Assembly: GCA_020137815.1 (NCBI GenBank)
Contig: CM035358.1
Span: 558,001 to 622,000, forward strand
Source: Hormiphora californensis
Lineage: Eukaryota > Animalia > Ctenophora
Length of the DNA stretch: 64,000 nt
Direction: 5' to 3'
Shown piece by piece: positions 1 to 64,000 of the stretch. Position numbers and translations under genes: made by a program. Each line of letters starts with the position of its first letter. Positions within the stretch are counted from its first letter, which is position 1. The notes below the pieces were generated by a model. It was not told the DNA's origin and searched no databases. It was given only the letters and a program-made list of their open reading frames with translations.

Positions 1-164
1 GTGCGCTCTTGGGTGCTCTTGGAGGCTCTTGAACTTTATTATGGTTCCTTATATCTTAAAAAATTTTTTTTTCTAAAAGGGGGTTAAAATGGGATTAGAT
101 AACAATATCAATATAAAAACACCGGTCTCCCATGGGGGAGAAGATTAATAAATTACTGCATTGA

Positions 165-3100
165 TTAAAATTGATTAAATCGGGTAGAATTAAAAGAATT
201 ATATAATAAGTTAATATCTTGTTTTTCACTCTTGTATTGTATTGTTTTGGTAAACTTATTGCCTCTATGGCCCCTTAAACTGATCACAGTTGTTCTGAGC
301 AGGGTGAAGGACAATCGCTGCCTGATATAACGGATGGTATCAGGATAAGCCTGTTTGGTTTTGTCAGCAAGCAGCTTTGCTAGGCGCCTGTAGAATTTTT
401 CTGCCTCGTTGCCCAGGGCACCAGTTATTGAAAACACAAGAGGGCAAAAACAGCTCTGCTCGACCTCAAGGACCCGTTCGTTATAGCACCGTTTTTTCTC
501 GTCCTCGTGCCGTTTCAGAGCTGTATCGAGCGGGATGGCACTGTTGGTGGGTGCCAATGGATTAAAGATACGAACATCCGTGTAAATTTTGTCCATAGGA
601 AGCCAAAAGTCCCTGGCAGCAACATCAAGGCGAGCATCGTTTGCAGTGTTCGCTGACTTTAGCCGGAACGTTTCGCCAGTGATTGGGAGAAGATGGGGTT
701 CTCTTGAAACATCACGGCATCCGGCCTCTTTCAACAAGTTTGCAGTAAGGTCCCGGATCTCATTGTGTCGGAGCTGTACGTAACCGCCAAGATGACAAGA
801 GAGGCTGTGTTCAGTGGTGTTAGGTTTTCCACACGGACAATTTGGTGGTCTACCCTCAAGTTCCAAGCAGTAGCGGAGGGACATGGAGTCCCAGAACTCC
901 TGTTTGTTCAGATTGAACCTATGTTCCTTGAGGGGGAGAGATGTTACCCATATGGAAGACCCTCGCCGTGTTCTCTCTTGGTGGAAACGCTGTTCGTTGG
1001 GTGGTAGTGCCTCTCTCACAAGTTCTTCAGCCTTGGTCTGGTTCAGCCGTTTGGTGGTCAACATCTCGGATTTTGCAGACTCCAGCTCCCGCTTAAGCAA
1101 GTGCAAACTCTCTGGATCAAATTGTGTTTTCTGTTCGTTTATGATTTTGGAGAGAGGTGCAGTAGCCGCTGCAGAACTGGCGTATTCAAAATCCGCGATC
1201 TCGACGGGGTTGAAGATTCCAAGGCCCCCATGGCGGGCAGGGAGTGACAGAAGTTTCCGATTGTTTGGGGTCAGTTGGTTGCTGATTGTTTTTGGGATGA
1301 AAGTGGATGATATGATGTCTTCCAGTGGCTGGAAGAGATCAGAGATGTCCTTGGTAGTTCTCATAATAAACAACCACCGTTTGGAGAGTCCCATGATGTA
1401 AGCAGAGAATGATGGATGGGGCTCAGATGTTGAAAAATCAGATAAGTCTGTAAGCTCTTGGGCCCACGTCTCAACCTGTTGACTGACGTACTGTTTCTTA
1501 AACTCGTCGGTACCTAGGGGAGCTCCGAGATATCTTTGTCCCTCTGATGTAATATGCACACCTGTGTCCTTGAAAATAGAGCTGGCAGTGTTCTCAAGCC
1601 CAGGTTTGACGATCAGCACAGACTTCTTTCCATTGGGGAAGTAGCCTAATCCTGGGCCAACTTCGCACAGAATGTCCCACCACTTCCGCATAGCCAAGAG
1701 TTTCCCAACAGATGCACCGTCATCGGCAAAGAAGATCTGTGCACAGTCTGCCTCGGAAAGGGCTGAGATGAGAGGATTCAGGCTGATGCAGTACCAGGGA
1801 GATGCAAGGTTGCAACCCTGAGTGGTGCCTTCACTACTCAGAATGAAAGTGCCGTTCTGTAGGAAAAGTTTGGCAGGGGATCGGTAGATGTTGATCGTGA
1901 AGGTGGCGAGCGGGGGGCAAAGATAGCGGAGATTGACGAGAGCGGTTGCCCGATTAAGCACATTAAAGGCGTTGGTTGCATCCGCTAAGAGCACTCCCTC
2001 AGAGCCATCGTCATCAAACATGCTAGACATGCTGTGGACGGCAGCCTCAATTCCACCCTGAAGGCCGGAGGCAAGCTGCAGTGGCCCGGCTGCTTCAATG
2101 ATGTCGCTGTGTAGATGGCAGACAACAGTACGCCCAATGATACGCCGGAGTATTTCCCCGATGCCGATGGGGCGGATACCCGGATTCTTGTTCAGGGCGA
2201 TCAATCGACATGAGACCAAGGCAGAGATGGTGTGTGGGTTGATGAAAGAAGTGCAGAGGCGACGAGTCATTCTTGCCAGGGCATGGGCCAGGGCATCGGA
2301 TTCGAGGTGGAAAGTTCTACTACACAACATTCTCGCCCACAGTGCATCGGTCATTCCACTGGGACCTGCTCCTCCCTTGGTTGTGGCAGCTGATCTCCTG
2401 ATTGCTTCAGTGTCAATGCTGTCAAACAGTGCTGGTTCAACACTGGGAGCTGGCAGGCGGGAGACTAAAAGGTCTCGGTTGAGTGGCTGGGCAGGGGGGT
2501 GTTTGGCACGGAGCCCCTCAATCACTTCAGGGGAGGGTGGGAGGGGTGCAGATGGAGAGGTGTTCAGCACACGGAGGGCCGCTGCAACTTTACCGTTCAG
2601 CATGAGTAGAGAGAAGCTCTTCCGGGAGTTCTGATGGTTGCTACTCATAGGGATTTTGGATTGAATAGCTTTGCACTCCCTGACTAGGCTGTCGAAGTCT
2701 CCATCTCTCCACAGTTGTAGCCTTCTCCTCAGGGCCTCACATTCTTCAGAGGGCTTGGATCGTTTGCCTGGTTTCTGAAGGAGCAGGGCTCCCATGAGGT
2801 GGAGCGCTGTGATGGCAAATGGCTCCAGGGGTGAGGAGTTTGTCCAACCGTTAATCAGACGGGTTGCCTCGCTAATGAAGGCCTTTCCAGCTGCACCTGC
2901 TGGTAGTTTTTTAAAGAGATTTGGTTTCCAACTTGCAACAGTACAATGAATTTCATACAGAGTCTGGGGGAGGGTTAATTCTGAGTGTTCACCCCAGGAG
3001 TAGGGCCGGTGGGGAATATGGGGGAAGTCTGGAATTTCCGAACAGTTGTGGCAGTGCCATGGGGCATCCTCATCTGAGGTAACCTTGTGGTACTCATCTG

Positions 3101-3395
3101 GGGACAGTCCTGCACATCTGTGGTGGTACCACCCGTCACAATTAGTACATTGAATCCAATGAACCACTCCATTGAGTGAGCGCTTGGGTTCGTTGGAGTC
3201 ATTGTAATTACTGCATGAAACACAAAGTTCAGAGGATTCATCAGAATTCACCGATATGGAGTAGGTTGAAGAAGAAGGGCAGGAGGATGGAAGGTAGGCG
3301 GAGGGACGGGATGGGGGAGGAGGAGCGATAGGCTGGTTGGATGGCGCTGGAGTCTTCTTACGCTTGGACGTTTGCCGCTTCGTGCGTCCTGTCAT
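165..3395 (-). CDS. Retrotransposon polyprotein: PHD finger, reverse transcriptase, CCHC knuckle, PD-(D/E)xK-type restriction-like endonuclease (1076 aa)
   Basis: PHD C4HC3 (CVSC...WIQCTNCDGWYHHRC...WHCHNC). RT motifs GIRPIGIGEILRRII, LLADATNAFN, EGTTQG, FFADDG, YLGAPLG. Knuckle CPCGK...HSLSC. Endonuclease RHNEIRD, ARLDV...YTDVRI, CPLVFSITG. ORF is uninterrupted. Confidence 0.95.
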   Translation of the reverse strand: MTGRTKRQTSKRKKTPAPSNQPIAPPPPSRPSAYLPSSCPSSSTYSISVNSDESSELCVSCSNYNDSNEPKRSLNGVVHWIQCTNCDGWYHHRCAGLSPDEYHKVTSDEDAPWHCHNCSEIPDFPHIPHRPYSWGEHSELTLPQTLYEIHCTVASWKPNLFKKLPAGAAGKAFISEATRLINGWTNSSPLEPFAITALHLMGALLLQKPGKRSKPSEECEALRRRLQLWRDGDFDSLVRECKAIQSKIPMSSNHQNSRKSFSLLMLNGKVAAALRVLNTSPSAPLPPSPEVIEGLRAKHPPAQPLNRDLLVSRLPAPSVEPALFDSIDTEAIRRSAATTKGGAGPSGMTDALWARMLCSRTFHLESDALAHALARMTRRLCTSFINPHTISALVSCRLIALNKNPGIRPIGIGEILRRIIGRTVVCHLHSDIIEAAGPLQLASGLQGGIEAAVHSMSSMFDDDGSEGVLLADATNAFNVLNRATALVNLRYLCPPLATFTINIYRSPAKLFLQNGTFILSSEGTTQGCNLASPWYCISLNPLISALSEADCAQIFFADDGASVGKLLAMRKWWDILCEVGPGLGYFPNGKKSVLIVKPGLENTASSIFKDTGVHITSEGQRYLGAPLGTDEFKKQYVSQQVETWAQELTDLSDFSTSEPHPSFSAYIMGLSKRWLFIMRTTKDISDLFQPLEDIISSTFIPKTISNQLTPNNRKLLSLPARHGGLGIFNPVEIADFEYASSAAATAPLSKIINEQKTQFDPESLHLLKRELESAKSEMLTTKRLNQTKAEELVREALPPNEQRFHQERTRRGSSIWVTSLPLKEHRFNLNKQEFWDSMSLRYCLELEGRPPNCPCGKPNTTEHSLSCHLGGYVQLRHNEIRDLTANLLKEAGCRDVSREPHLLPITGETFRLKSANTANDARLDVAARDFWLPMDKIYTDVRIFNPLAPTNSAIPLDTALKRHEDEKKRCYNERVLEVEQSCFCPLVFSITGALGNEAEKFYRRLAKLLADKTKQAYPDTIRYIRQRLSFTLLRTTVISLRGHRGNKFTKTIQYKSEKQDINLLYNSFNSTRFNQF

Positions 3396-3449
3396 ACCAA
3401 CGTGCCCGGACTGCCCCTCCTGGGCTGGCTCTACATCCTGCGGCGAAAT

Positions 3450-3489
3450 CTCAAATTAATTTGTTTAAAGTAGTGTTAAAAAATTTGAA
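3450..3489 (-). other. Spliced-leader (SL) exon-like sequence, 54 nt upstream of the retrotransposon ATG
   Basis: Minus strand TTCAAATTTTTTAACACTACTTTAAACAAATTAATTTGAG. 36/39 identical to the copy at 54123-54161, and the similarity stops exactly after TTTGAG. Matches the ctenophore SL as I recall it. No GT donor follows. Confidence 0.8.
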
Positions 3490-3644
3490 TGAATTTTAAT
3501 GCGCGGCTGAAATTGCAGCGCATTATGATAAATAAATCGCGCAATCCAGTGCTTTGCAGCGCAGCTTTTGTGAAAATTCATGATATAAATCACTTTTCAG
3601 TGTTTTGGTGATTTTGGTTTTTAAATTTTATCTCAGGGCTCAGG

Positions 3645-3693
3645 CTTGAAAAGCGCTGCCTTATCCCGCGGGGGGCCAGCAACGTTTGCCAAG
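3645..3693 (+). mobile_element. 49-bp mini-transposon with imperfect TIRs and TSD
   Basis: CTTGAAAAGCGCTGC...GCAACGTTTGCCAAG, flanked by GCTCAGG / GCTCCGG. A near-identical inverted copy lies at 49030-49086. Confidence 0.7.
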
Positions 3694-5421: not shown

Positions 5422-8400
5422 ATCTCACCATACTCTCTCTCCTACTTTATATATTATTATGAATTGACTTTGCGAGTGTGTCTCTTGTCTTGTTGGCTCT
5501 AGGAAATCAAGTAGACAATTGCTATCATGAATGCAGCGATGTAAAGAGAGAGGGAGAGATAGGGAGATAGAGAGAGACTGCACAGAAAGACAGGGAGAGA
5601 CTGTACAGAGAGACAGGGAGATAAAATAGTTAGCGTCGCAGAGAAGTTGATTCTCCTCTTTTCTCGAACTGCTTCACACACACGCACTTGAAAACGAGAG
5701 AAGGAGGCCGGGGGAAGCCATGCAGGCTCACTTTTATATGTCGACACCCAACCAACACACTCACACCAACAACGGGATAAAATGGGTGGGAAAAAAGATA
5801 AAAAGATAGACACTAGGGGATGGTCAGTTGGGGTTGGCCAGACACGATAATTTGCTATGTCGGGCCGCCACATGATGATGAAAGGTACAGAGAAAGTGTG
5901 AGAGAGGTCCAGACCTCTCTCTATTAGACGACAGGTTAGGAACTGTGCATGTGCAGAACTGCTACTGCAGAGAACGGGATATTACACACTCGCATGCCAC
6001 GCTAAACTAATTGGTTTCCACTACATAGTGCTGCACACAGACAAACTGACAAACAAATAATAGTACACCGTACAGGCAGACAATCTGACAAACAAATCGG
6101 GCGACTCTACACTACCCCACTCTCCAACCAATACAGCTCTATCACTTTGATACTGTGATCACCGTTAAGTGTACACTCTTGTTGCCGTCACACTAATGGA
6201 TTCGAAAAAAGTAATGTTTTCTCTCGATTTGGTAGCGGGATATTTGCCAAGGGGAAGAGAGGAGTGATTGGTTTCAGTAGAAAGTGGTAGGGTACTTCTG
6301 CTATAATACGTCAGTATTAAAATATACCAAAAAATATACCCAGTTTTTAGGGGTTATATTGACTTGCTGGTAAAGGAATGGTTATAACGGGGCACGAGCT
6401 CTTTGCGTTAAAGAGGCGTTTATCGAAAGAGGGATAGACGGGAGAGATTTAACGAAAGAAAGAAGAAGAAATAGACTGAGAGAGAGAGAGAGAAGAAGAA
6501 CTAGAGGCAGATCATACAGAGAGAATGATCGAGAGGAGGATAGAAAGGTTAGCATGCATTGCTCGTCTATCATGCACTAGCCGCTCCCGCACACTCCCCT
6601 CTATCTCTCCAACTATCCATCTCTCGCTCTCTCTCCCCCTCTTTCCCCTCTCTCTTTCTTATTTTCGATTTCTTTTGACTGACCACACAAACACATCAAG
6701 TCAACTAAACTTACTACTGCACTAAGATCTTTCTCACAGGCGTATTTTCGTGCCAAGCAAAACCGAATAGGCCAGTCATATGACGTTGTGAAATGGAACT
6801 AATTGATCTAAAAGCGATTCCACTTCCAGGGCCCTCCAATGGGTCTCTACAACCACCAAAAAAATTTACCGCGGGTACCGCGATGGAGAAATCGGTCATT
6901 TCCGGGTTTATTTTGCACCTGCATAAATATAGGCTAGGACGAATGCGATATACGGTAAAAACCGTCTTTGGAAACAAGTAGAAAAGAAATCAAGGGCACT
7001 AAAGTGTGTAGCGTCCTCGCATTAGTGGGGGTAGGTGCTGGAATTAAGTCTCTATCTTATCAGGTTAATTAGATAATTGGATAATTAGATGCGCACATAG
7101 CCGTTTTATGGTTATACGGTAAAAACCATCTTTGGAATGGAGTAGAGAAAAAAACCGAGGGTACTAGAGTGATCAGCGTCCTCGAATTAGTGGGGGTAGG
7201 TACCAAAATTAAGTTCCTATCTCATCGCGTTAATTAGATAATTGGATAATTAGGTATGCGCATAACCGTTTTTAGGTTACATGGCTATAGCCACTTAGGA
7301 ATGGTTTAGAGACTTTTCATTGGTGCCATTTTGTAGGCAATAGCCAAGTTATGGGGGGTCGACGTCGGACTTTTTAGCTCTATATTCAACCATTTAGCCG
7401 TTATATGGCTTTAAAGGTGCTCAAAATCGGTCTTTTTACCGCATTTTTGCTCACTTTGAGCACCTTTAAAGCCAAATGACGGCTAAACGGTTGAATATAG
7501 AGCTTAAAAGTCCGACGTCGACCCCCAATAACTTGGCTATTGCCTACAAAATGGCACCAATGAAAAGTCTCTAAACCATTCCTAAGTGGCTATAGCCATG
7601 TAACCTAAAAACGGTTATGCGCATACCTAATTATCCAATTATCTAATTAACGCGATGAGATAGGAACTTAATTTTGGTACCTACCCCCACTAATTCGAGG
7701 ACGCTGATCACTCTAGTACCCTCGGTTTTTTCTCTACTCCATTCCAAAGATGGTTTTTACCGTATAACCATAAAACGGCTATGTGCACATCTAATTATCC
7801 AATTATCTAATTAACCTGATAAGATAGAGACTTAATTCCAGCACCTACCCCCACTAATGCGAGGACGCTACACACTTTAGTGCCCTTGATTTCTTTTCTA
7901 CTTGTTTCCAAAGACGGTTTTTACCGTATATCGCATTCGTCCTAGCCTATATTTATGCAGGTGCAAAATAAACCCGGAAATGACCGATTTCTCCATCGCG
8001 GTACCCGCGGTAAATTTTTTTGGTGGTTGTAGAGACCCATTGGAGGGCCCTGGAAGTGGAATCGCTTTTAGATCAATTACTTCCTTTTTCAGCGATAAAT
8101 CGACGTCATATGACTGGCCTAGAACACGGTTTTGAGAGAGAGAAAGTGAGAGAAAGTGAGAGAGAGAGTGTGTGCAAAGGATAACGATTTGTTACCAAAC
8201 CGCAAGTAATTCCTCTTTGCTTATTTCGTGCTCAACGTGAAAGCTAATGATCAGGGATTCAGGAAGAACGTTCTATTTTGAGATCCAGGAGACTGGTGTA
8301 GTGAGAGAGCCATAACAGTTGTTTGGTAGTGAGTGAAGGTCGAACTCTGTGTGTGTTTGAGTGTGCGTCGGTAATGTCATTAAAATCTCCCGATCCCACC

Positions 8401-13453: not shown

Positions 13454-14731
13454 AAAAGGAAGAGGAGACATTTGTATATTATAGTAGTTGGTATAAATGT
13501 TGAGCGGTGATCTTCAAGCTACAAAGTGAATGAGAATATGTACTCAGGACTCAGAATTGTGTAAAACTTGGATTCACGGGTTACCTATAAAACAATACTT
13601 AGATCAATCATCAATAACAGGCCTTTCACCTCGGTCCTAGTTAAAATCCCAAATCTAACCCTATAAGTGACAGTTAGACACATCTCCAACCCCCACTCAT
13701 CCTCCAGGTCCCGTTATCATGCTGTGTAAACACAAGAACCTAAAGGGAAAGTGCTCCAATGTGACAGAGGCAACCGCTGACTTGGGTGATCTAGATAACA
13801 TGGTATGTGTTACCTTTCTCCACTGTTTTTTATTCATGTTTCCCAGTAAAAGTTCACTATCCCTCTGTAGGGTGCATTTAATCACCTGCAGCTTAGATTA
13901 AATTCTCAACGTTTTAGTACTAGAGTAGTAATTTAAAATATATTGCTAAACAGGGGGTTGGTCTGATTGCAGCTTTACCAAGTAGTATCGGTTACAACCC
14001 ACTCACACCATTCTCAGATCACTATTACTCACAACCTTCTCACAGTTGATTTCAAACCGCCCTACCTCACCCTCCCTCTCACCAACCCCTTTCTCTCAGG
14101 TGCAGTCAGTGAGAGTATTCGGCGGTAACTGGGCTCTATTCAGTGAACCCCATTTCCGGGGCCAGCGATATGACGTCAGGAATGGATTCACGTCTCTCTG
14201 GATGGGTGTCTACTCCCCTGAATATGGGAGTGCTGATCTGAGAACTCTGGGAAGGAGCCTCTCATCCCTGAAACCCCTCGGTTAGTGAAATGGAGATCTA
14301 GGAATATTAATATGTTAACCATCATGGTTTTGGGTGCCATAGTTATTGTTTTAAACTGGTTTAGAATACAACTCATTTAGAGCTGTTAACGCCCAATCAC
14401 CCACATACAACTTGTCTCCCATTAAGACAAGGGCTTGTCTCTCAGCTGCCATACAAAGGGAGGGGGGTTTGTTTATATTAGTCCTGGGAATTATTCACCG
14501 CATTGCGTGTGATGTAATGGAATGATCCTCTCAACTACGTGTAGCTAGAACACATTCCTTGCTTGTGATATCCTGAACAGAGAGAGAAAGAGAGAGAGAG
14601 ATTGAGAAGTGAATGAGATGAGATAGATAGAGATGAGAGAGAGAGAGGAGATCGAGAGAGAGAAGAGAGAACGAGAGAATGAATCGACGAGAGAGATGAG
14701 ACTGAGATGACTTCCTAGAGAGAGAAGTCTT

Positions 14732-14766
<35 letters not shown>

Positions 14767-17700
14767 GGGGGGTGAGAGAGCATGTTCTACAGAGACCTGG
14801 AAAGAGGGGGAGTGCGAGGGTGAAAGAATCGCTTCGTGCCACCCACCGTTACATACTGGCGCCTAGTGCACGGAAACTGAGCGGGCTGAGAGAGAGTGAG
14901 AGAGAGGAGAGAGAGTGAGAGAGAGGAGGAGAGAGAAAGGCATTCTCATTAGCGGCTTTATTGAATAAAAAAGGTGAACTAAATGTTTACACACGAACTT
15001 GTTTCCTTGTTGCACAACTACGAATAAAAAAAGTAACCCCCAGTAACCCATAAAGTTGGAATAATTTGGGACAGTAACATAATAATTCGGGACAATAGTA
15101 GACATAAGTTCTCAGTTCAACTTGTCCAATGATAATGGAGGACTAGGAAAAGTGGTTGTTACTTGCTTACTAACCTTGGTAATCACTATGTAAACCCCCC
15201 CTTCCTATTTTAGAGATGTTTGGACCCAGTACCACCAAGGATCCATCCCTAAAATTCACTTCAGATGGTAACTATGTGGCATGCAGACAGATGACAGACC
15301 CAATAACCTGAATAACTTATTTCCCTTTAGTTATCTACCGACCAAGACAGACACTTGTTTCTAGATACAACAGAACAGAACTTACACCACATCACCCCCT
15401 AACACCTACTCTCCCCTCCCCAGCTACTGACATGACAACTGATTTCACTGAAGGCTCCATCTCCTATGGAACTGTTGGCCCAACTAAGGGATCTGATTCC
15501 CCGGTTACTCTCGACCCCGGTTACTCCCAATGGGTTAAACTGGACGACATTCCTGCATCCGCCCATCCCACAATGTAAGCTTATAATCCCCGAGTGTGTG
15601 TGTGTGTGTGTGTTTACCCATGCACTGCTTATGTAAACAGTGTCTAGCAGAGAGCAGTTGTCAGGGATCTCTCTGATTGTAACGCGCGATAACACCAGTA
15701 CTAAGATCTGCGCGCTGAATTCACGTGCTTTCTTTGTGCGCACTCAAAGCGGGGCATCTCTAAGCGGGGGTGTTAGCACCCCCTGTCCGGAGTACTGCTT
15801 TTTTTCTTCTCTGTGTGTGTCGCAACACTGGAATCGTGCGCGTTCAGGGCATGTTTCAAGTTCCACGTGTCATAGCGTAGCCCCTAATTAGATTAACGAA
15901 TAATTGTTCACACTAGGTTCAAGCCCAGACAATTCCTAATACCGTAGATCAAGCCCGGACTTGATTGGATAAACACAAGCTAGGTTATGGGCTCTTTTGT
16001 AAAAGTCGTCATGATTCTGTACACCACGGAATCTGTCAACCTAGGCAGCTTCTCCGGCTCACTGAAAGAGTAATATCCCGAAATTCAAAAAAAGGCGAGA
16101 TATGCCCTCTAGACAATTGTCTGCTGAAGAAGCTGGTGTAATTTTTTTCAAGATCCGACGTAAGACGTAGCCAGTTAGCTGTAACATTTGAAATCATGCT
16201 CATAATTCGTGTAGTGCGTAACCAATGCTGACACATTGAAGTCTAAAGAGTACTGCTTTTTTCCGGAGTACTGCTTTTTCTCTCTCTGCCAAGAGGGCGC
16301 GTAGGGGGCTGTGTGTGGGGACTGTGAATGTGTTGGAGTGTGGTGCATCAAGGCAGTGTGTGTGGTATTCTGATTTCTGTCTCTTACACGACTTAGTGTA
16401 CCGGATATTATAAGAGTAGAATGTTATTATACATGACACATAATGCTTCCTACTCCCCTCAGCTGTCCCGACCGGCGACCCCACCCCTCATCTGCTCCAT
16501 CTCTCAGCTAACCTACCCCTCATCTACTCCAACTACCAGGCACCAGATATCCTACCCACCATCTCCCTCATCTACTTCATCTCTCAGCTAACCTACCCCT
16601 CATCTACTCCAACTACCAGGCACCAGATATCCTACCCATCATCTCCCTCATCTACTCCATCTCTCAGCTAACCTACCCCTCATCTACTCCAACTACCAGG
16701 CACCAGATATCCTACCCATCATCTCCCTCATCTACTCCATCTCTCAGCTAACCTACCCCTCATCTACTCCAACTACCAGGCACCAGATATCCTACCCATC
16801 ATCTCCCTCATCTACTCCATCTCTCAGCTAACCTACCCCTCATCTACTCCAACTACCAGGCACCAGATATCCTACCCATCATCTCCCTCATCTACTCCAT
16901 CTCTCAGCTATCATACCCCTCATCTACTCCAACTACCAGGCACCAGATATCCTACCCACCATCTCCCTCATCTACTCCATCTCTCAGCTATCATACCCCT
17001 CATCTACTCCAACTACCAGGCACCAGATATCCTACCCATCATCTCCCTCATCTACTTCATCTCTCAGCTATCATACCCCTCATCTACTGCATCTCTCAGA
17101 TATCCTACCCCTCATCTACTCCATCTCTCAGATACCCTACCCCTCATCAACTTCATCTCTCAGATACCCTACCCCTCATATAATACATCTCTCAGCTACC
17201 CTAGCCATCATCTACGCCATCTCTCTGCTACCCTGCCCCTCATCTACTCGATCTCACAGCTACCCTGCCCCTCATTTACTCGATCTCTCAGCTACCCTGC
17301 CCCTCATCTACTCGATCTCTCAGCTACCCTTCCCCCTCTCCATCTACTACATCTCTCAGCTACCCTACTCCTCATCTACTCCATCTCTCAGCTACCCTTC
17401 CCCCTCCCCATCTACTACATCTCTCTGCTACCCTGCCCCTCATCTCAGCAGTCAGCTACCTTACCCCTCATCTACTTCAACTCTCAGATACCCTACTCCT
17501 CATATAATACATCTCTCAGATATCCTACCCCTCTGCATCTACTCCATCTCTCAGCTACCCTAGCCCTCAGCTACCATATTCCTCAGGTACCCCAATACCC
17601 CATCCTGCTCGATCTCTCAGCTACCCTGCCCCTCATCTACTCGATCTCTCAGTTACCCTATCCCTTATCTACTCTCTCAGCTACCCTTCCCCTCCCCATC

Positions 17701-20700
17701 TACTACATCTCTCAGCTACCCTGCCCCTCATCTCAGCAGTCAGCTACCTTACCCATCATCTACTTCAACTCTCAGATTCCCTGCCCCTCATATAATACGT
17801 CTCTCAGATATCCTACCCCTCATCTACTCCATCTCTCAGCTATCCTACCCATCAGCTACCATACCCCTCAGGTATCCCAATACCCCATCCTGCTAGATAA
17901 CTGTAAGATCTTATTAGATGCTTCTAAAACCCCCAAAATACCCACCAGACCTCATTAGATACTCCTTAGAACCTTTCAGGTACCCTTACAACCTGGTCTG
18001 GTGGGTATCCTGGGGGAAGCATCTAATAAGATCTTACAGTTATCTAGCAGGATGGAGTATTGGGGTACCTGAGGAATATGGTAGCTGAGGGGTAGGATAG
18101 CTGAGAGATGGAGTAGACAAGGCGTATGATATCTGAGAGATGTATTATATGAGGGGTAGGGTATCTGAGATCTGAAGTAGATGAGGGGTAAGGTAGCTGA
18201 CTGCTGAGATGAGGGGCAGGGTAGCTGAGAGATTTAGTAAATGGGGAGGGGGAAGGGTAGCTGAGAGATAGAGTAGATACGGGATAGGGTAGCTGAGAGA
18301 TCGAGTAGATGAGGGGCAGGGTAGCAGAGAGATGGCGTAGATGATGGCTAGGGTAGCTGAGAGATGGAGTAGATGCAGAGGGGTAGGATATCTGAGAGAT
18401 GTATTATATGAGGAGTAGGGTATCTGAGAGTTGAAGTAGATGAGGGGTAAGGTAGCTGACTGCTGAGTTGAGGGGCAGGGTAGCTGAGAGATGTAGTAGA
18501 TGGGGAGGGGGAAGGGTAGCTGAGAGATAGAGTAGATAAGGGATAGGGTAGCTGAGAGATCGAGTAAATGAGGGGCAGGGTAGCTGAGAGATCGAGTAGA
18601 TGAGGGGCAGGGTAGCAGAGAGATGGCGTAGACGATGGCTAGGGTAGCTGAGAGATGGAGTAGATGAGGGGTAGGATATCTGAGAGATGTATTATATGAG
18701 GGGTAGGGTATCTGAGAGATGAAGTAGATGAGGGAGATGATGGGTAGGATATCTGGTGCCTGGTAGTTGGAGTAGATGAGGGGTAGGTTAGCTGAGAGAT
18801 GGAGTAGATGAGGGAGATGATGGGTAGGATATCTGGTGCCTGGTAGTTGGAGTAGATGAGGGGTAGGTTAGCTGAGAGATGGAGCAGATGAGGGAGATGA
18901 TGGGTAGGATATCTGGTGCCTGGTAGTTGGAGTAGATGAGGGGTAGGTTAGCTGAGAGATGGAGCAGATGAGGGAGATGATGGGTAGGATATCTGGTGCC
19001 TGGTAGTTGGAGTAGATGAGGGGTATGATAGCTGAGAGATGGAGTAGATGAGGGAGATGATGGGTAGGATATCTGGTGCCTGGTAGTTGGAGTAGATGAG
19101 GGGTAGGTTAGCTGAGAGATGGAGTAGATGAGGGAGATGATGGGTAGGATATCTGGTGCCTGGTAGTTGGAGTAGATGAGGGGTATGATAGCTGAGAGAT
19201 GGAGTAGATGAGGGAGATGATGGGTAGGATATCTGGTGCCTGGTAGTTGGAGTAGATGAGGGGTAGGTTAGCTGAGAGATGGAGTAGATGAGGGAGATGA
19301 TGGGTAGGATATCTGGTGCCTGGTAGTTGGAGTAGATGAGGGGTAGGTTAGCTGAGAGATGGAGTAGATGAGGGAGATGATGGGTAGGATATCTGGTGCC
19401 TGGTAGTTGGAGTAGATGAGGGGTAGGTTAGCTGAGAGATGGAGCAGATGAGGGGTGGGGTCGCCGGTCGGGACAGCTGAGGGGAGTAGGAAGCATTATG
19501 TGTCATGTATAATAACATTCTACTCTTATAATATCCGGTACACTAAGTCGTGTAAGAGACAGAAATCAGAATACCACACACACTGCCTTGATGCACCACA
19601 CTCCAACACATTCACAGTCCCCACACACAGCCCCCTACGCGCCCTCTTGGCAGAGAGAGAAAAAGCAGTACTCCGGAAAAAAGCAGTACTCTTTAGACTT
19701 CAATGTGTCAGCATTGGTTACGCACTACACGAATTATGAGCATGATTTCAAATGTTACAGCTAACTGGCTACGTCTTACGTCGGATCTTGAAAAAAATTA
19801 CACCAGCTTCTTCAGCAGACAATTGTCTAGAGGGCATATCTCGCCTTTTTTTGAATTTCGGGATATTACTCTTTCAGTGAGCCGGAGAAGCTGCCTAGGT
19901 TGACAGATTCCGTGGTGTACAGAATCATGACGACTTTTACAAAAGAGCCCATAACCTAGCTTGTGTTTATCCAATCAAGTCCGGGCTTGATCTACGGTAT
20001 TAGGAATTGTCTGGGCTTGAACCTAGTGTGAACAATTATTTGTTAATCTAATTAGGGGCTACGCTATGACACGTGGAACTTGAAACATGCCCTGAACGCG
20101 CACGATTCCAGTGTTGCGACACACACACAGAAGGAAAAAAAGCAGTACTCCGGACAGGGGGTGGTTAGGAAAGGGACGCCGCGGAATAAACCGGATATGC
20201 TTTGTGTTGTTTTGGCAGAACTCCAATTAAAGTTTCCACTTCTTTCTCAGGTGCCGCCAGACGTACTGCATCCTGGGTATTCGGGTTATCTTCCCTCGAT
20301 TAAACGCTGTTGCTTTGCCTACTGATCAAATCTTGAGAGATACAATTATCTCTCGACTGATGGATAGCTACGGAATCGAATCAGAACAGGTAATGGAAGA
20401 GAGGGCCTCCATCTCATTTGATAGAGGAAATGAACGAATATGTCAAGTGATGATTAATTATTATCAATTCATTGATCATTCATTTCAATCTACATGAGTC
20501 GAGTGGGTGGCCAAATGATGTAGTAGTAGTACATCCTTACCCCACCCACTCAACTACATGCTGCTATTATTAACTACATCCCCTCAGATTGTTCATGTCT
20601 CTATTGACGAGGCGTCCTCTGAACTGGAGCTGCAGATAATCGATAAGAAGGGATCTCGACAAGTTATTGACGTTGCTGCTGACATCCAGACAGATGTAAG

Positions 20701-26984: not shown

Positions 26985-29981
26985 AAGGAGGAGGAGTAGA
27001 GAAGTTCTAGATTATCTGGGATTAATGTTAAATAAGTCAACCACGCCTCTGAATATTGTCATAATTCTCTTTGACCCTATCACTAGCGCAATATTGTCTA
27101 CGCCAAAGACACTCTTACAAATGGCACTAGAATTAAATAAGAAATTAAATGGAAACCTAACTGGATATGAAGGAAGAGATAGAGGGAGAGAATAGAGACT
27201 CGAGAAAGTAAAAGATAAGAAGAGATAGAGAGAGATAGAACCCGAGAAAAGGGGAAATAAGATAGATAAGAGAATCTATATATATACTAAACATATATCT
27301 ACTCTCCATCTCTATCTTCTGCTATCTTACTCTCTCTCTCCTTACATCCCTCTCTTCATCTTCCCTAATAATCTCGGAACCCCATAGTAAAAGTATTGCA
27401 CCAATAATCCGATCCCCTAAGAGCCGTAAGCACACGAGCCCCCGAAGATAGTGGATAGGGAAAGGGAATTGCAATTTGCCCCCCCCCCCCCCTAAATGCC
27501 TTCTATTAGCTCCCCTCAGCCTCTCTCCGTTACATTTTTCTCATGCTATTTTATCTTTATGTGCTTTCTTTGTCTTGCCCATATTTTACTTTTGTTTTGT
27601 CTTTCCAAAACCTCATATTTAAAAAGGGATAATGTCCTTCGCAGGCCGCTCTCACTGCCTATGTAAGATTCAGACTGCGTCGAAGGCATTGTCTCCTGGC
27701 CTTTTCGCAGCCTTAATCTTGGCTAGTCGAATTTTTTGAGAGTTATTAATAAAGTAGAATATCTCTTCTCTCTCTCTATCCTCTCTCTCTCTCCCCTCTC
27801 TCTCCGCGTGCTCCTCCCCGCCTAGCTCTCTCTCACTATACCCAGTTTAGCCTTCTTCTTATCCTTTCCTTCTATTCTTATATTCTCTTGAGAAGATTTG
27901 TCGGAAAAGAAATTGTTTTCCCTTTTCCCTTATTTAATATCCTTTTTCTCTATCGCTCCTTCAGTTTCACTTTTTCTGATACCATTAAGTGCGTTTAACA
28001 TAACCCCCCTATTTTCTGCTAGCTATATCATGTCTACCAGTAGCGGTAACTTGTTCCCACTATCAGACAGCTGCCCAACCCATCCCGGCGTATCAGCTGA
28101 ATACGAGGCTCGTTTTGGACTTAACTCAACCATGGATATCGCCACTAATTTCCTGTCTCAAGTCAACTACCTCTCTCTGATTGGTTCAACCCAACTACTT
28201 ATTGGTGGTGTGGGTGTCACACTGAACGGACTAACCCTGAGCTACTACTGCCGACTAAAAAAGCAACTGTTTGGGTGTGTCCACAAGACTATGACTCTGG
28301 TAGACCTTGTTAGCGGGGTCGGTGCGATTATCCTTGGGCTCAGTATATTCTGGTTACTCCAGGGGAACCCACCCTACAGCTACTCCATCCAGTTCAGTTC
28401 AACAGTTGTCATGGTGCTAACCCGTGTATCAGCGTGGAACCACCTCCTACTAAACCTCCTCAGGACACAGAGCGTTACATCTCCATCCCGATCTGTTGCT
28501 AACTCTACTATGGTATCCCTCCTCCTTCTACCCATGGTTCTCTGGTGCGGAGTGGCACTGGGCGATATCTTCGCAGAGAGCGAGCTGCCCTGTGTTTATC
28601 ATGTGCGGTACAACCTGATAATGCCCATATTAGGTCGGGGGTTCATGGAACGGATATCCCTGTCTCTCTGCTCCACACCCTGGTATCCTGGTATTATGGG
28701 GTTGTTGCTAGTGTGCCCATTCCTCCTTCCATCCATCACCATCTTGGTTCTCATGATAACCCAGGTTTATGTGCTGATATTCAAGAACAGACAGGTCACT
28801 AGGAAGAGTGCCCGTAGTAGGAAAATGGCCCAAACTATTGTCTACCTGTCTCTCTCCTACTCCATCTGCCATAGTCTCTACACTGTAGTAACACTGGGTG
28901 ACAACAAGAACTCTCTCCTTCTATTCTTCACCTCCTCAACAGCTCCTGCCCTTCACACCATGATAACCCCTGCTATCCTGATACTGAGAGGCCGGGCCCT
29001 CCAGACATATTGTCTGAATGTTGTGGAGAAGTACGGGGTGAGGAGAAGTAATTGGCCTGCAAGGGTACCAGGCCCTCCCATGGCTATAGACAGGAACTTG
29101 ACTACAGTGAAACCAGAAGGGAAGGAGATTACACGGTATAATAAACCTTCTAACTCACTAGGACTATAATGGGGTTTTATGTGATATTTTGTATTTATTT
29201 CTGTTAGCCTCATATTTTGAGGTAGGATGAGTTTCGTTTGTTTGGAGGCAGTGCTTCCATGTTTTCTGTTGAGCTGTTATTGTATGAAATGGTGACCCTT
29301 TTGCAATTTGCTCGCAGACATGTGTTTATTACAGATCCTGATCAAAACAGTGTCTCAGATAGATGAGAATAGAAATGCTCTGTGCAACTTACCCCAGAAT
29401 AAGTAGCTGCCCTGGTCACTGTTCACTAAGGAGCTACTCCTTGCCAGATAGAGGAATCCCAAAGAGGCAACAGTTTTAGTAACACTCTTTACATACTTGG
29501 AATAACCTGAAATGGGTTTATTAATTACAGGGTTTTATTGTTCATGTTATTGCCTCTACCACAGTATCGATGTAGAACATAATTCCCCTTAGAGGAAACA
29601 GATACTCTTGCTTATGAAGTTAAAAAAAGTGGTAAGTTCTTCAGCCGTGCTCGGTTGAAGAATTCTCAATCTTGATAAACTTTAGATATCATACTATTGA
29701 ATAATTAAAATAATAACGGAATATGTATAATATGATAAAACCCTCCTGAAATCGAACGTTTGTAAAGAGGTCAGTCATTATTATTGTGATCGGTATTCTC
29801 AATACATTGGTACGGTACTTTTCTAATGAAGACATTAAAGTTAAGTTGTAAGTAGTATTCATAACCATTAACTCAAATTACATAATGTCTCACCATAAAA
29901 CTCGTTGACTAGCAGGAGAGAGAGTGAGGTTAGGGTAACGTAAACGGGAGTCAGGGACAATACCAGGTGATCCTTGTTCAT
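23524..29981 (-). CDS. YhhN/TMEM86-like lysoplasmalogenase family membrane protein (about 6 exons)
   Basis: Exons encode MNKDHLVLSLTPVYV..., KSVTKTVASLGFLYLA...YLFWG, LILSAFGDVMLL...FQIGAFFFLLAHMMY and LFYISDLFVARQRF...LYYTAQIMFAL. The GD, AH..Y, SD and YY.AQ motifs are those of YhhN. Confidence 0.85.
26485..26787. repeat. Two short degenerate inverted repeats (MITE relics)
   Basis: ATCTACCCACTTTAAAAAGTGGGTAGAT hairpin at ~26520-26550; ACGGTAA...ATACAGTAAG...CTTACTGTAT...TTACCGT at 26625-26762. Confidence 0.5.
28030..29169 (+). CDS. Intronless rhodopsin-like 7TM GPCR (divergent), nested antisense in an intron of the YhhN-like gene
   Basis: Seven hydrophobic segments: TM1 GVGVTLN, TM2 LVDL, TM3 ending LLRTQSVTSP, basic IL3 RKSARSRKMAQTI, TM7 ITPAILILR. 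Likely ATG 28030, preceded by a polypyrimidine-AG. Confidence 0.85.
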   Translation: MSTSSGNLFPLSDSCPTHPGVSAEYEARFGLNSTMDIATNFLSQVNYLSLIGSTQLLIGGVGVTLNGLTLSYYCRLKKQLFGCVHKTMTLVDLVSGVGAIILGLSIFWLLQGNPPYSYSIQFSSTVVMVLTRVSAWNHLLLNLLRTQSVTSPSRSVANSTMVSLLLLPMVLWCGVALGDIFAESELPCVYHVRYNLIMPILGRGFMERISLSLCSTPWYPGIMGLLLVCPFLLPSITILVLMITQVYVLIFKNRQVTRKSARSRKMAQTIVYLSLSYSICHSLYTVVTLGDNKNSLLLFFTSSTAPALHTMITPAILILRGRALQTYCLNVVEKYGVRRSNWPARVPGPPMAIDRNLTTVKPEGKEITRYNKPSNSLGL

Positions 29982-35236: not shown

Positions 35237-37661
35237 TAATCCATGTGATTTGGGTAAATAATCAGGCCAACCAGGAATTTTGGGGGGGACGGCTAATTCC
35301 TTCACTAATAGTTAGTCTAAGAGGTCCTTATGTACCAAAAAAAAGTTTTAAATCTGAAGTGGTGGGGAAGACCCCTATAATTGGCCTTAATTGGCACTAA
35401 CCGGATATTCCCATAACTTGGCTTAGAAATGGAGTAGAGACAAAAATAAGGACACTAAAATGTGTAGAATCATCACATTATAGGGGGTAGAGACCATTAC
35501 TGAGTCGATATCTCCAATACTAATTGAGATAATTGAGTTAATTGGATAATTCATGCCGCGCATGGTTGCCGAATACAAATCCTCTTAGAATAGGAGTAGA
35601 AATGAAAATAGGGACACTAAACTGTGCAGCGTCCTCGCATTAGTGGGGGTAGACACCCATGAAAAGTTCCTATCTCAATTGGTTAATTGGATAATTGGAT
35701 AATTAGATATGCGCATAGCCGTATTAGCCTATTAGATATTCAGCAGACCATATACGATACCCTGAGACTCTAAGAGCCTCCTACATACCCCTAGTACCCT
35801 CCTAAATACCCTTCAGACCCCGCTAGATACCTCTTACACTCTATTAGATGCCCCTCGAAGCTTCCTAGATAGCCCTTACAGCTCATTGGGTAACCCTTTT
35901 ACCTTCCTATACACCCCTCAGACCCTGCTAGATGCATTTTAGATCTTCCTAGATACCCCTAAAACTCTCCAAGATACACATAAGATACCCCTTAGACCCC
36001 GTTAGATACCCCTAAAATCCTTCTAGATACCCCTCAGATCTTAACATAGATACCCCTAGTACCTTCCTGGGCACCCCTCAGATCTCAGACCATATAAGAT
36101 ACCAATCAAACATCATTAGATACCCCTCACAGCTCCCTAGATACCTTCACAGCTCCTTAGATAGCCATGTTACCCCTCTAGATACGCATCAGACCCTGCT
36201 AGATACATATCAGATCTTGCTAGATACCCCTGAACCCCCAAAGATACCCCCAGAAATCAGAATATACTAGATTCATACCCCCTTAGACACCATTAGATAT
36301 CTGTCAGACCCTTCTAGATACCCTTCAGAGCTTCATACCTGACCCTGGGCCTACTAGATACCCATCACACCCTATTAAATGCCCCTCAAGCAGAGCTTCA
36401 TACCTGACCCTGGGCCTACTAGATACCCATCACACCCTATTAAATGCCCCTCAAGCCTCAAAGCTTCATATACATACCCCTCACAGCTCCTATTAATCCT
36501 ATTAGCCTCCTAGACACCCCTCAGACTTTGATCTACCGAACCCTCCCAAAGGGTATGAGCCATACAACGCAGACCCTGCTAGATACCCCTAAAACCCTCC
36601 AAGATACCTCTCCGACTCTACTATACCCCTTAGACACTATCAGATACCCCTCAGATCCTTCTAGATACCCCTCAGAGCTTCTTAGACACCCCTCAGACCT
36701 CAGAGCGCTATCTAATGGAGGGTTTCAGGGGTATGTGGGTGTCTAGGAGTCTATTAGGGTGTCTAAAAAGCTGTGAGGTGTATCTAGGAAGCTCTTGAGG
36801 GGTGTAATTGGTATCTAGAGGGGTAAAATGGCTATCTAAGGAGCTGTGAGGATATCTTTGAAGATCTGGGGTATCTAGAACGATTTTAGAGGTATCTAAC
36901 GGGGTCTAAGGGGTATCTAGTACAGTCTAATGTGTATCTTGGAGAGTTTTAGGGGTATCTAGGAAGATCTAAAATGCATCTAGCAGGGTCTGAGGGGTGT
37001 ATAGGAAGGTTACCCAATGAGCTGTAAGGGCTATCTAGGAAGCTTCGAGGGGCATCTAATAGATTGTAATAGGTATCTAGCAGGGTCTGAGGGGTAGTTA
37101 GGAGGTTACTAGGGGTATGTAGGAGGCTCTTAGAGTCTCAGGGTATCGTATATAATATGGTCTGCTGAATATCTAATAGGCTAATACGGCTATGCGCATA
37201 TCTAATTATCCAATTATCCAATTAACCAATTGAGATAGGAACTTTTCATGGGTGTCTACCCCCACTAATGCGAGGACGCTGCACAGTTTAGTGTCCCTAT
37301 TTTCATTTCTACTCCTATTCTAAGAGGATTTGTATTCGGCAACCATGCGCGGCATGAATTATCCAATTAACTCAATTATCTCAATTAGTATTGGAGATAT
37401 CGACTCAGTAATGGTCTCTACCCCCTATAATGTGATGATTCTACACATTTTAGTGTCCTTATTTTTGTCTCTACTCCATTTCTAAGCCAAGTTATGGGAA
37501 TATCCAGTTAGTGCCAATTAAGGCCAATTATAGGGGTCTTCCCCACCACTTCAGATTTAAAACTTTTTTTTGGTGTATAAGGACCTCTTAGACTAACTAT
37601 TAGTGAAGGAATTAGCCGTCCCCCCCAAAATTCCTGGTCCTTACCCTAATCACATGGATTA
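35237..37661. mobile_element. Foldback element C (~2.4 kb)
   Basis: Inverted arms (ACCAGGAATTTTGGGGGGGACGGC ... GCCGTCCCCCCCAAAATTCCTGGT) containing two copies of the ~165-bp module seen in element A. Interior of degenerate TAGATACCCCTCAGACC repeats. Confidence 0.85.
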
Positions 37662-41573: not shown

Positions 41574-44500
41574 TCACTGGAACGCCTGCAGTCCGGTAAT
41601 AGCTCTACCAATAATCAGGGCGTGGATATCGTGTGTGCCTAAGGGGGGAGGGGGGTATTAGTAACATTGAATACGCCGGGACAATTTAATGTAATTTACA
41701 GACTATGCCCTATTGCATTTGACCGTTTAATTTGTAGTTATAATTTACCTTCGTATGTATTGACAGATTCCAGGTTCAGGACATGTCGAATAATGTGGTA
41801 CTCATCAGATATCCCATTACCTGAAATAACATAATTAATTAGGGCATAAACAATCACGCGGCACCGGTGTGTATATGACATGTTAACACAGAATGGGTGT
41901 AAACAATGTCACATACAAGGATGATATCACGTGACACATCAGAATGCTAACGCGCATGGCTCGATGTACTTTTTACACAACAGACAAGCCGCGCGTTACT
42001 GCGTTGTTGTAGGTTTAGAATAGCGCCTGATAATGATAACACCATCAGTTCATGTGACGGGACAGACACGCTATTTCTACTGTTCTATATTTCTAGATAT
42101 TGTCGGTATATTTGGAACCCCTCCCATCCCCAGTTCCGAATGAATGATTGTGATATTACCTCCAAGGATGTCTCTGCACTCTCGCGCAATGTCCAGGGCG
42201 TTTCCACAGTTGTTTCTCTTCATCATAGATATCATCTCAGGAGCTGCCCTGTAAATAGAAAGTGGTAGAGGTTAGTGTCGGAGACAGAGGTAGTAGAAGT
42301 GAAATTTATATCCTAATTCCTGTATCAGTTCGAGTGATTACAAGATTACAAGATGTGGCCTGTGGGATCAGGGATTTAGGATTGAGTACCCTGGGAGTAG
42401 AGAGAATTACTTACATTCCCTCATCCTTTAGTCTGCCCAACTGAATACACCCCTGTAACCCCAGAGCTATCCGGGTCGAGATATCAGCGAATTTCTTCTG
42501 AATTAGCTGGTTCTTTGCTAGAGGTTTGCCGAACTGTTGTCTGTCCAGTGTGTACTGTAGAGCTGTATCAAAACATGCTTCAGCGGCACCCATAGTGCCC
42601 CACGCAATACCAAACCGAGCATTATTCAGACAACCGAAGGGACCCTGAGGGAATAAGGAAATTAAATTACATGTGACCCAAATACCCACATGTGAGTCAC
42701 TATCACACAGTAACTTAAATTTTGAGTTCAATGTTCATACTCGTTATTTCATTTCTCATTGTCTACGTAGCTACTCAAAACACTCCCACCACATACCCCG
42801 AGCCCGTCTATTTTAGGTAGGAGGTTTCCAGCAGGTATCCTAACATCGTCCATTGCAATTTGCCCAGTTACACTGGCCCTCAGGGAGAACTTGCCCTCAA
42901 TCTTGGGTGTAGTCAACCCTTCCATTCCTGGAAAGAGAGGATCACTTGTTGCAGTAGTGGTTCATTAGTTTCAGGTAGAAGTTTAGGGAGACCAGAGGAA
43001 AAAATAACAATTGAACATGGTTATTACCTCGTTCCAGTACGAATCCCTTGATCCTTCCATTACACCGGGCCCACACAACAAACACATCAGCAATAGGTGA
43101 GTTGCTTATCCTGTGCAGGGAGAGAATGGGTTAATAATCGAGAGAATACACGTATATGAAATAAGTTGCGAAATCTCCCTCTTAGCATTTTATAGAACTA
43201 TGAATGAGATGGGAGGCTAGATGAGTTAGTTGAATTAGTTAGAGTGGATTCAATTATCTGGCATTGTCTGTGAGATCTAAAGGATACCAGATGTCCCTCA
43301 TTTGAACACCATGATTGTCCTTGTTACGTTGATATGTTGCCTCCTGGTAGAGGGAGTGGTGGCGACCAACCTCCGACTATCTATCAATAGGTCAGTAGTG
43401 TGACAAAGTGTGACAAATGACCGAGACAAAGAGTTAGTAACTGACAACTTTCCCTAGTGATTATCTGCGCCATATTGAGGAGGTATCAGACCAGCTACTG
43501 AAGGGAATGGAACCCGTTCTAAAAGGACAAACCTTCCCTGGCTCTGAAGGTAGGTGTCCCATGATGTCTCTGAGATCCACTAACTTACTGATCTTCAGAT
43601 CTTCTCAAACCTTTTCTACCACTTGTTTTACCCAAATATAGGGACGGTATACAAGATTGATAACCTGAAGCTGGAGACCATCTCACTGGGTCACAGTTCT
43701 GGGTCTCTAACTGATGGGATACTGACACTTCGTCTAAATAACGCCTCCGCTAATATTACAGGAGACTGGGAGGCTTACTCTTTCTGGACTACAACAGGTG
43801 ACATGGAAGGAATTTAATATTAGGTTGTCCCAGAAATAATGTCATGTCCCGATTTCTCCAACTTAGCCTATCGATTTCGATTTGAAACTTTTCTAGCTTG
43901 TTCATTTAACCCTTGACTCTATAAAACAAATGTTTGTTTTGAAAAAATTGGTTTTTGACGCGCCCTGGTGAACCCGGAAACAAGCGAGCTAAAATTTCCG
44001 CTGAACGAAAAATATGCGCATGTTAAAAACACTGCTGTACTTTTTCAGATAAGTATCTGTAAAATATTTCACTACACCATTCTTGTTTATTGGACAATTT
44101 TCTATCGTTTGAGTGGTGGATGAAGACACAGGTCCCACTCATTGCTGAGCTATGGAGCTCCAAAAAACTTTGGTCAAAATCAGAAATTTTGACTTCCGGG
44201 TCACTTCAGGTATCAGCGGATTGACTTACAAGAATTATTTTAACAGCTATTAATAGTCCCAACTAAGCTCTTAGCCTTGGAGATGCTGAATGTTTGATTT
44301 TGTAAGGTTTTGATTTGAAAGTTTGAAGTTTTTGAAAGTAGCCATAAAACAGGTCAAAATTTAGGGTAAATTTTTGGATTTTTTCGCTTTTTTGCGGCAT
44401 ATAAGCTTTGCCTGACGCTTTCATAGGTTGCGTCGAGACTAAAATCGCACAGATGTATAAACTGTGGACGATGGGCTATCTTTTGGTGCCATTTGGAATT

Positions 44501-48848: not shown

Positions 48849-49015
48849 TGCTATCAGAGCGTTTTCTTAATGATCAATGGCTCATAAAGCGAACTCAAGC
48901 ACCTTAAAAGTTAAAAGTGAAAACTCAAAAACAGAAAACTCAACAAAATTTGACGATAAATTTGACGAAAACTTGATCAACTTCGCAGGAAAATAGGATG
49001 CACGTTTCTGATTTA

Positions 49016-49319
49016 AAGTGCGTTTCAAACTTGGCAAACGTTGCTGGCCCCCGATAGCAGCGCGGGATAAGGCAGCGCTTTTCAAGTTTCAAACGACTTG
49101 ACCTGAGATTCCTGGAAATTCAGGATTTCCCCTTTGTAAAGTCCGTTTCAAGCGACTTGACCCGTAATTCTTGGAATTTGGCGCATTGCGCGTGTATTTA
49201 CAAAGGGGAAATCCTGAATTTCCAGGAATCTCAGGTCAAGTCGTTTGAAACGCACTTTAAATACACGCGCAATGCGCCAAATTCCAAGAATTACGGGTCA
49301 AGTCGCTTGAAACGGACTT
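49016..49319. mobile_element. Triple nested insertion: 119-bp MITE containing the 57-bp mini-element (49030-49086) and an inverted copy of itself (49139-49257)
   Basis: TA TSDs at both MITE levels and a TTTCAAA TSD around the mini-element. The empty site is visible in the paralogous copy (~52375-52385). Confidence 0.92.
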
Positions 49320-49872
49320 TAAACGTAGCGCGCTAAGCTAAAACAAAACAACGATGCATCTAAGCGATGCGCGTTTAAATTTTGATTTGTCACAAAAACT
49401 GAAAAAATCACATTTTAAAAACCGACTTTTGTGACGAATCACGAAATGACCAAGTTTAGCTTCGTTCTTCTGTCTGTGATGTAACAAGGAAATCTAACGA
49501 CTTGTTTTCTATCCAATACATACATATTACACAATATTGAGTCCCTTTTTTGCCCCAGCGAGCGTAAAATTGTTGGTTAAATGGACGGGAAACTACTACT
49601 TCCCCCTAAATCTGCTGCTCCTCCTGGATCCTACTGCTTCGCCCTGAACATGCTACTTCTTATGATGATATTTTGACTACTACTTCTTCTTGACCATTTC
49701 CTCTTATGTTATTTCCTCTGCTCAACCTCCTTTCGTTGTAGCACCGTTTTTAGACTGAGTTTGCTTCTTTGAAATATTTCTTATCCTATAAATCAGCCGT
49801 ACCAAAATTTGTCGATTTTCTATTCCCATTCATTGATAGATTCTCAATCGTAGACTGCTAGCCGATGCTGTT

Positions 49873-52966: not shown

Positions 52967-64000
<11,034 letters not shown>

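Follow-up and report, generated by a model that had tools for sequence, protein, structure and literature searches.

A CRE-like retrotransposon headed by the host spliced leader in the ctenophore Hormiphora californensis

The stretch of Hormiphora californensis (Ctenophora) DNA considered here (GCA_020137815.1, contig CM035358.1, positions 558,001 to 622,000 of the forward strand; 64,000 nucleotides (nt), referred to as the window) begins with an intact retrotransposon on the minus strand, at the 5' end of which stands the host's spliced leader (SL). Judged from sequence, the link between leader and element is real, family-wide and not a product of chance, and insertion into SL genes does not explain it. 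Reverse transcription of trans-spliced element RNA is probably, in our moderately confident judgment, how the SL-headed unit arises.

The element and its target site

The initial annotation described an intact frame for a reverse transcriptase (RT) and restriction-like endonuclease (RLE), with an SL-like sequence 54 nt upstream of its ATG, and both the frame and the spacing (SL end at 3450) hold up. The open reading frame (ORF) extends on the minus strand from an ATG at 3395 to a stop at 165, encodes 1076 amino acids (aa) without internal stops (open stop to stop over 165..3455), and places its domains in the order PHD, RT, CCHC, RLE. From 5' to 3' the parts are these:

3476..3486, minus strand: candidate target-site duplication, 5' copy; resembles SL nt 8-18 (9/11) and contains both mismatches of SL copy 1
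3450..3475, minus strand: the final 26 nt of the host SL exon, lying inside the duplicated site and matching the published leader exactly; the whole SL-like stretch is 3450-3489
3396..3449, minus strand: 5' untranslated region (UTR), 54 nt, 65% GC, with a start-stop upstream ORF (uORF) at 3436-3431 and an acceptor-like CAG at 3440-3438
165..3395, minus strand: intact single ORF, 1076 aa and stop
3042..3224, minus strand: PHD finger (Pfam PHD, E 0.002, below cut-off; PDB matches to the PHDs of Pygopus, KDM5A and MLL)
1719..2183, minus strand: RT core with FADD at its end (Pfam RVT_1, E 1e-5, below cut-off)
795..839, minus strand: CCHC zinc knuckle (motif)
483..770, minus strand: RLE motifs RHN, D, D, K
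73..164, minus strand: 3' UTR; a short hairpin is predicted at 126-141
64..72, minus strand: A9 tail, 3 nt of it shared with the duplicated site
56..66, minus strand: candidate target-site duplication, 3' copy; non-SL DNA comes next

The leader is tied to the element by the target site. The longest exact repeat between the element's ends is 11 nt (56-66 and 3476-3486), its 3' copy overlapping A9 by 3 bases. Because this duplication brackets the last 26 nt of the SL together with the element and A9, the SL would belong to the inserted unit. The 26 nt below the 5' repeat copy equal the published leader exactly, while both mismatches of SL copy 1 (3478 and 3483) fall in the repeat, a point that the initial annotation overlooked. 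The likely layout of the insertion is SL(26 nt)-UTR-ORF-UTR-A9; what look like the first 13 nt of SL copy 1 are probably target DNA with a resemblance to SL nt 8-18. As in a retrocopy of a trans-spliced RNA, the SL stops exactly at its exon end, inside the duplicated target; after the A9 tail there is neither a remaining piece of SL exon nor a GT intron. Among the listed joints there was no empty site (66 joined to 3487).

That this is the organism's own leader, as the initial annotation proposed, is borne out by the 44-nt sequence printed for H. californensis, which is carried by 56% of Iso-Seq reads (PMC8527503): by eye, SL copy 1 agrees with it at 38/40 positions, and a second copy farther along the window at 38/39. 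The SL pattern has 2 matches in the window and 0.00 in 100 shuffles. Alignment of 3450-3488 with 54123-54161 bears out the reported 36/39 identity, with the likeness stopping at TTTGAG, and, as also reported, no GT donor follows either copy; nor does an Sm-like motif occur within 120 nt of either. The genome of H. californensis (110 Mb) holds 718 leader copies and that of Mnemiopsis leidyi (M. leidyi) 491, counted without explanation where they are reported (PMC8527503). At 718 per 110 Mb (approximately 0.4 per 64 kb) a second copy in the window is unsurprising in itself. It has a setting of its own:

54124..54169, plus strand: second SL copy, a separate insert of 46 nt (38 nt of SL and 8 nt) flanked by 5-bp direct repeats at 54119-54123 and 54170-54174
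54025..54268, no strand assigned: TA-bounded hairpin element of 244 bp, resembling a miniature inverted-repeat transposable element, with the second SL copy at its centre

Removing the 46-nt insert restores the centre of the hairpin. Since the insert has its own duplication, SL DNA apparently also lands as short units. (Two further observations concern this locality: a duplicate segment, 49318-51042, 94% identical to 52377-54124, ends exactly at the hairpin centre; and a 44-nt piece of the element's endonuclease region recurs at 52802-52845 and 49716-49751, within this 1.75-kb duplicated segment.)

What kind of element is this? One ORF in which CCHC and RLE come after the RT is the arrangement of the R2 group, and so are the A-tail (A9), an 11-bp target-site duplication (of moderate significance) and 5'-truncated copies (3'-biased depth, below); the RHN, D, D and K motifs are those that we take, from R2-group endonucleases, to mark an RLE. 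The initial annotation's label, CRE-like, is supported as resemblance: the protein profile matches a set that includes two SLACS-named Diplonema proteins (probability 100, 798 columns, 24% identity), which speaks for kinship rather than clade membership. In a quick tree of 63 rows, in which SLACS proteins were named automatically, a long branch (3.17) separates the 47-row group containing the window element from the SLACS-named rows. At the level of such resemblance, the element appears to work like a CRE-type RLE long interspersed nuclear element (LINE). A PDB search with the protein profile gave 53 matches, all within the PHD stretch, and one with the RT region gave none; an Atlas search returned only RT clusters without names, and Rfam had no match in the window. 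By sequence the PHD finger is similar to readers of methylated H3K4, and one may speculate that it helps to choose active chromatin.

The leader joint in other copies and in relatives

The element is partly present in 20 of 22 listed sequencing runs. Contigs of four public runs (X1, X2, X4 and X9, under two organism labels, the different one being that of X9) were compared. These runs are taken to be DNA by a guess that intergenic cover and the sequence above the SL fit, and their contigs cannot tell a spliced from an encoded SL. For region 3300-3466 there were 43 contigs, with the loose-end table complete and 16 pieces outside the listing; X2 depths are uneven (a 20-fold drop in the AT-rich 3' UTR), copy numbers were not derived from them, and the marine small-share runs X12-X20 were left out. 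Depth falls from 3' to 5' (approximately 1570 to approximately 100 in X4; 11,700 to 250-570 in X1), the pattern of a LINE family in which most copies are 5'-truncated.

Unbranched contigs connect UTR and SL in X1 (record 5, 3361-3462, depth 340.6), X4 (record 18, 3306-3466 and 9 nt more, with a variant body) and X2 (record 13, 3411-3461), and UTR-into-SL contigs also occur in X9 (records 24-26). The SL-UTR junction falls at the same base in the SL-headed contigs of all four runs, variant bodies included. An outron-bearing copy identical over the first 30 nt of the UTR would have split the unbranched contigs; no contig of the four runs has an intact UTR under an outron, although a parent diverged in those 30 nt could escape. 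At 3441 the SL-headed contigs depart from the window sequence (by depth sums) and must therefore represent other copies or alleles. In X9, the depths of four contigs at 3430 add up to 194.8, the value near the ORF start being 196.2. Three of them, amounting to 173.5 (89%), contain 14-17 nt of SL; the fourth (21.3) has TTGAG with different letters above it, which look by eye like an SL variant but may be flank. Paths that stop short of the SL include copies truncated at 3366 (X1, X4) and at 3356 (X2).

These joints bear on two explanations that we rate as highly improbable or worse. 1) The adjacency might be an accident, the element having inserted by one of the approximately 700 dispersed SL copies, or the assembly being chimeric. 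There are 718 such copies per 110 Mb (PMC8527503), chimeric assembly has been raised for comparable Schistosoma cases (Boroni et al., PMC5832876), and the SL-to-flank joint of the window copy itself (3476-3520) is bridged by none of the listed contigs and is given by the assembly alone. Yet the same SL-UTR joint is found in 4/4 runs on variant bodies and the sister clade, too, has SL-like heads (below), so that the chance adjacency to an SL relic against which the initial annotation guarded falls away; we give this explanation almost no credence. 2) The RT might have jumped from the 5' end of an unspliced element RNA onto a free SL exon or an SL-headed RNA. RTs of the R2 group do jump templates, and the 54124-54169 insert is an instance of SL DNA landing as a short unit with its own duplication. 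Such jumps should be ragged, however, whereas the joint is at the same base in every SL-headed contig, under two organism labels; a template jump is accordingly very improbable.

Some other features of the runs may be noted here. SL copies in general have unlike flanks on both sides (agreement 0.43-0.49). One set of contigs (X4 record 19 and X1 record 6, window 3428-3466) represents a second sequence family, not necessarily one of retrotransposons, with the same SL end and first 22 nt of UTR, then different (853-nt contig). A 35-nt contig of X1, at depth 6000, resembles the SL and 17 nt of UTR (3433-3466), and depth is near 28,000 at the 3' hairpin (117-122); together these possibly reflect a high-copy, SL-headed, non-autonomous derivative. 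The short repeats at 1-52 and 3646-3692 are unrelated and high-copy; elsewhere in the genome they lie side by side (joint 52 to 3646, 4/4 runs), and the 3645-3693 repeat recurs at 49030-49086.

Close proteins have 94 to 51% identity. A metagenome scan gave 11 loci, none from the window's own subclade; a viral collection gave none for the window SL, the head of locus L001 or the protein alignment. In the quick tree, L001, L002 and L003 lie in a 5-row clade that is sister to the window's 8-row clade (support 99 for each and 99 together). L001 and L002 (42-44% aa) have SL-like heads followed by GT: in L001 approximately 45 nt ending AAATTTGAG, 28 nt above the ATG, the best SL match in its contig; in L002 the first 18 nt of the locus, ending TTTGAG, 49 nt above the ATG. 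These heads are unlike each other and unlike the window's. TTTGAG-ended heads are thus present in both in-clade loci that reach that far (L003 is cut within the ORF), while the out-of-clade locus L005 has no head. A 10-nt repeat stands just above the L001 head and at the 3' end of that element; because L003 shares 9 of these nt, it may be an element end. Upstream ATGs come directly after the heads: a start-stop in the window (3431-3436) and 9-codon uORFs in L001 (334-363) and L002 (21-50).

Is the element instead an SL-gene dweller of the kind known from trypanosomes (CRE/SLACS), with source copies at the exon ends of SL RNA genes, driven by the SL promoter, and strays that carry the exon to SL-like sites? 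The CRE-type protein speaks for this, as do the target, with its resemblance to SL nt 8-18, an 11-nt match (by eye) to that SL stretch in the DNA beside the 3366-truncated copy of X1 and X4, and the GT after the L001 and L002 heads. Against it, the 3' flank in the window is non-SL, and the 3' UTRs of L001 and L003 run into mutually diverging sequence, with no SL there; the SL gene sequence that accompanies CRE1/SLACS/CZAR and NeSL on both sides of the insertion is missing on the 3' side of all three, whose junctions were the ones read. No tail-to-SL joint appears among the joints listed (1 and 46 rows fell outside the listings), although short contigs could hide one. An SL RNA gene should have a GT donor with an Sm site 20-60 nt below (PMC7986045): the window copies have neither, and L001 and L002 have GT without an Sm-like motif, none being found below the four heads (though the true ctenophore Sm motif may differ). 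The initial annotation's version, a site-specific element at an SL RNA gene whose promoter occupies 3490-3640, lacks support on two counts: no SL intron follows at the 3' junction, and the DNA upstream behaves as single-copy (at 3634, depth 0 in X1, X4 and X9 and 43 in X2), so that 3490-3640 was rejected as an SL promoter. We regard SL-gene targeting as distinctly unlikely.

Origin of the leader

The trans-splicing proposal of the initial annotation fits these data best. Element RNA would receive the SL by trans-splicing and then be copied into DNA at the target, nearly as far as the cap; reverse transcription would be target-primed, with 3 A of the tail pairing at the nick, and the AT-rich target, being similar to SL nt 8-18, might help the 5' end to join. 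Read-through, or the SL itself, would drive transcription of the promoterless SL-headed copy, and re-splicing at the AG that ends the genomic SL could (this step is purely a proposal) regenerate a capped RNA with the same 5' end. Since no outron-bearing master has been seen, SL-headed copies are likely the propagating form. The scheme accommodates either a head renewed in each cycle or one that is inherited.

Several observations weigh against trans-splicing followed by reverse transcription. The duplication is AT-rich, and its unambiguous 8 nt occur in 4.5% of 1028 AT-rich 71-nt windows (hence its moderate significance); the 3' junction of this family was read in one copy. The SL likeness of the L001 head is modest (score 30, reached by 16 and 33 of 2000 shuffles; L003 scores 28 elsewhere), and the GTATGA directly after the L001 and L002 heads is like the donor of an SL RNA gene. 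A path in X2 leaves at 3442, just above the acceptor-like CAG, with non-SL letters at depth 493.5 (by subtraction) against 794.8 for the SL path; it is either a truncated copy or a spliced chimera. A promoter-bearing parent with an outron and AG acceptor where these copies have the SL, akin to the polypyrimidine-AG master that the initial annotation had in mind, was not found in the contigs of the four runs. Only DNA contigs were compared, so that trans-splicing of the element RNA is deduced from DNA. Finally, GAG is unusual as a splice acceptor, which weakens the case for re-splicing at the genomic SL.

Could the head instead go back to a single capture, from a spliced RNA or an SL RNA gene, and now be passed on as an invariant 5' module (serving, for example, as internal promoter or translation leader) with no splicing in each cycle? 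The built-in SL mimic that the initial annotation also entertained survives in this altered form, although not as a shared element-specific upstream sequence, which was not seen. The nematode SL exon has a promoter role. The identical junction in all SL-headed contigs of four runs, the lack of an outron master and the GT after the head in the sister clade all accord with inheritance, and an SL-as-promoter idea has been published for dinoflagellate retrogenes (PMC6050394). On the other side, the 26 nt inside the duplication match the present host leader even though bodies in this clade diverge by as much as 58% at the protein level, and related bodies have differing heads (X9 record 27; X2 records 14 and 15; L001 versus L002), as repeated capture predicts. 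A single capture is thus unlikely, and copying of trans-spliced RNA is the reading that we retain.

Known systems, neighbours and implications

The trypanosomatid elements CRE1, CRE2, SLACS and CZAR likewise have a single RT and RLE ORF, an A-tail, a target-site duplication and SL at the 5' junction, but they occupy a fixed place in SL RNA genes (PMC12278014), whereas the window element has its SL inside the duplicated site, a non-SL 3' flank and an N-terminal PHD finger. NeSL of nematodes is also an RLE element tied to SL exons in an animal; it differs in being site-specific in SL genes, in making target deletions instead of duplications, and in its N-terminal Ulp1-like protease (PMC4640811, PMC3636483). 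In Schistosoma mansoni, genomic SL exons joined to retroelements were read as possible retro-copies of trans-spliced RNA; these are six cases, mentioned in passing, for which the authors left chimeric assembly possible (Boroni et al. 2018, PMC5832876), while the joint of the window's family is seen across copies and two organism labels. The DinoSL-relict retrogenes of dinoflagellates keep the SL in DNA after reverse transcription of trans-spliced RNA, but they are passenger genes, often with tandem relics (PMC6050394), and the window element is autonomous with a single head. L1Tc and ingi, LINEs of a trans-splicing host, avoid trans-splicing and keep a 5' promoter (PMC1874656); the window family appears to do the opposite. 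In Hydra, approximately 30% of Iso-Seq reads of transposable elements bear the SL (PMC12220107). Literature searches, Repbase lying outside them, found no case of an SL-headed ctenophore retrotransposon; precedents for the idea exist in Schistosoma, Hydra and dinoflagellates.

Genes split by introns, those of the host, occur farther along the window. A 448-codon uninterrupted frame with an MT-A70 methyltransferase domain (47523-48866, minus strand) lies near acyl-CoA dehydrogenase exons (42414-46559, minus strand), and an exon with a beta/gamma-crystallin domain is at 13986-14282 (plus strand). A 425-codon stop-free frame (27892-29166, plus strand) has no Pfam match (plus strand only). Long, near-perfect foldback elements occupy 15799-20140 (arms of 1301 nt, with internal 80- and 32-nt tandem repeats), 6791-8088 (363 nt) and 35270-37638 (491 nt).

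The finding bears on how promoterless RLE retrotransposons outside ribosomal DNA and SL arrays form their 5' ends. An SL-headed propagating form would, if true, be a third route, trypanosome LINEs being reported to avoid trans-splicing (PMC1874656). One can go further and imagine, tentatively and with more doubt than conviction, a clade of PHD-finger, CRE-like ctenophore LINEs without a promoter of their own, all active copies of which would be SL-headed: host transcription and trans-splicing would cut precise, capped RNA out of read-through transcripts (the job of R2's ribozyme), the head would be refreshed from the SL pool, and the elements together with their derivatives would seed the hundreds of orphan SL copies found in ctenophores. 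Some of the 718 and 491 leader copies dispersed through the two ctenophore genomes may have originated from SL-headed units, which also suggest a possible path between SL-headed and SL-targeting elements.

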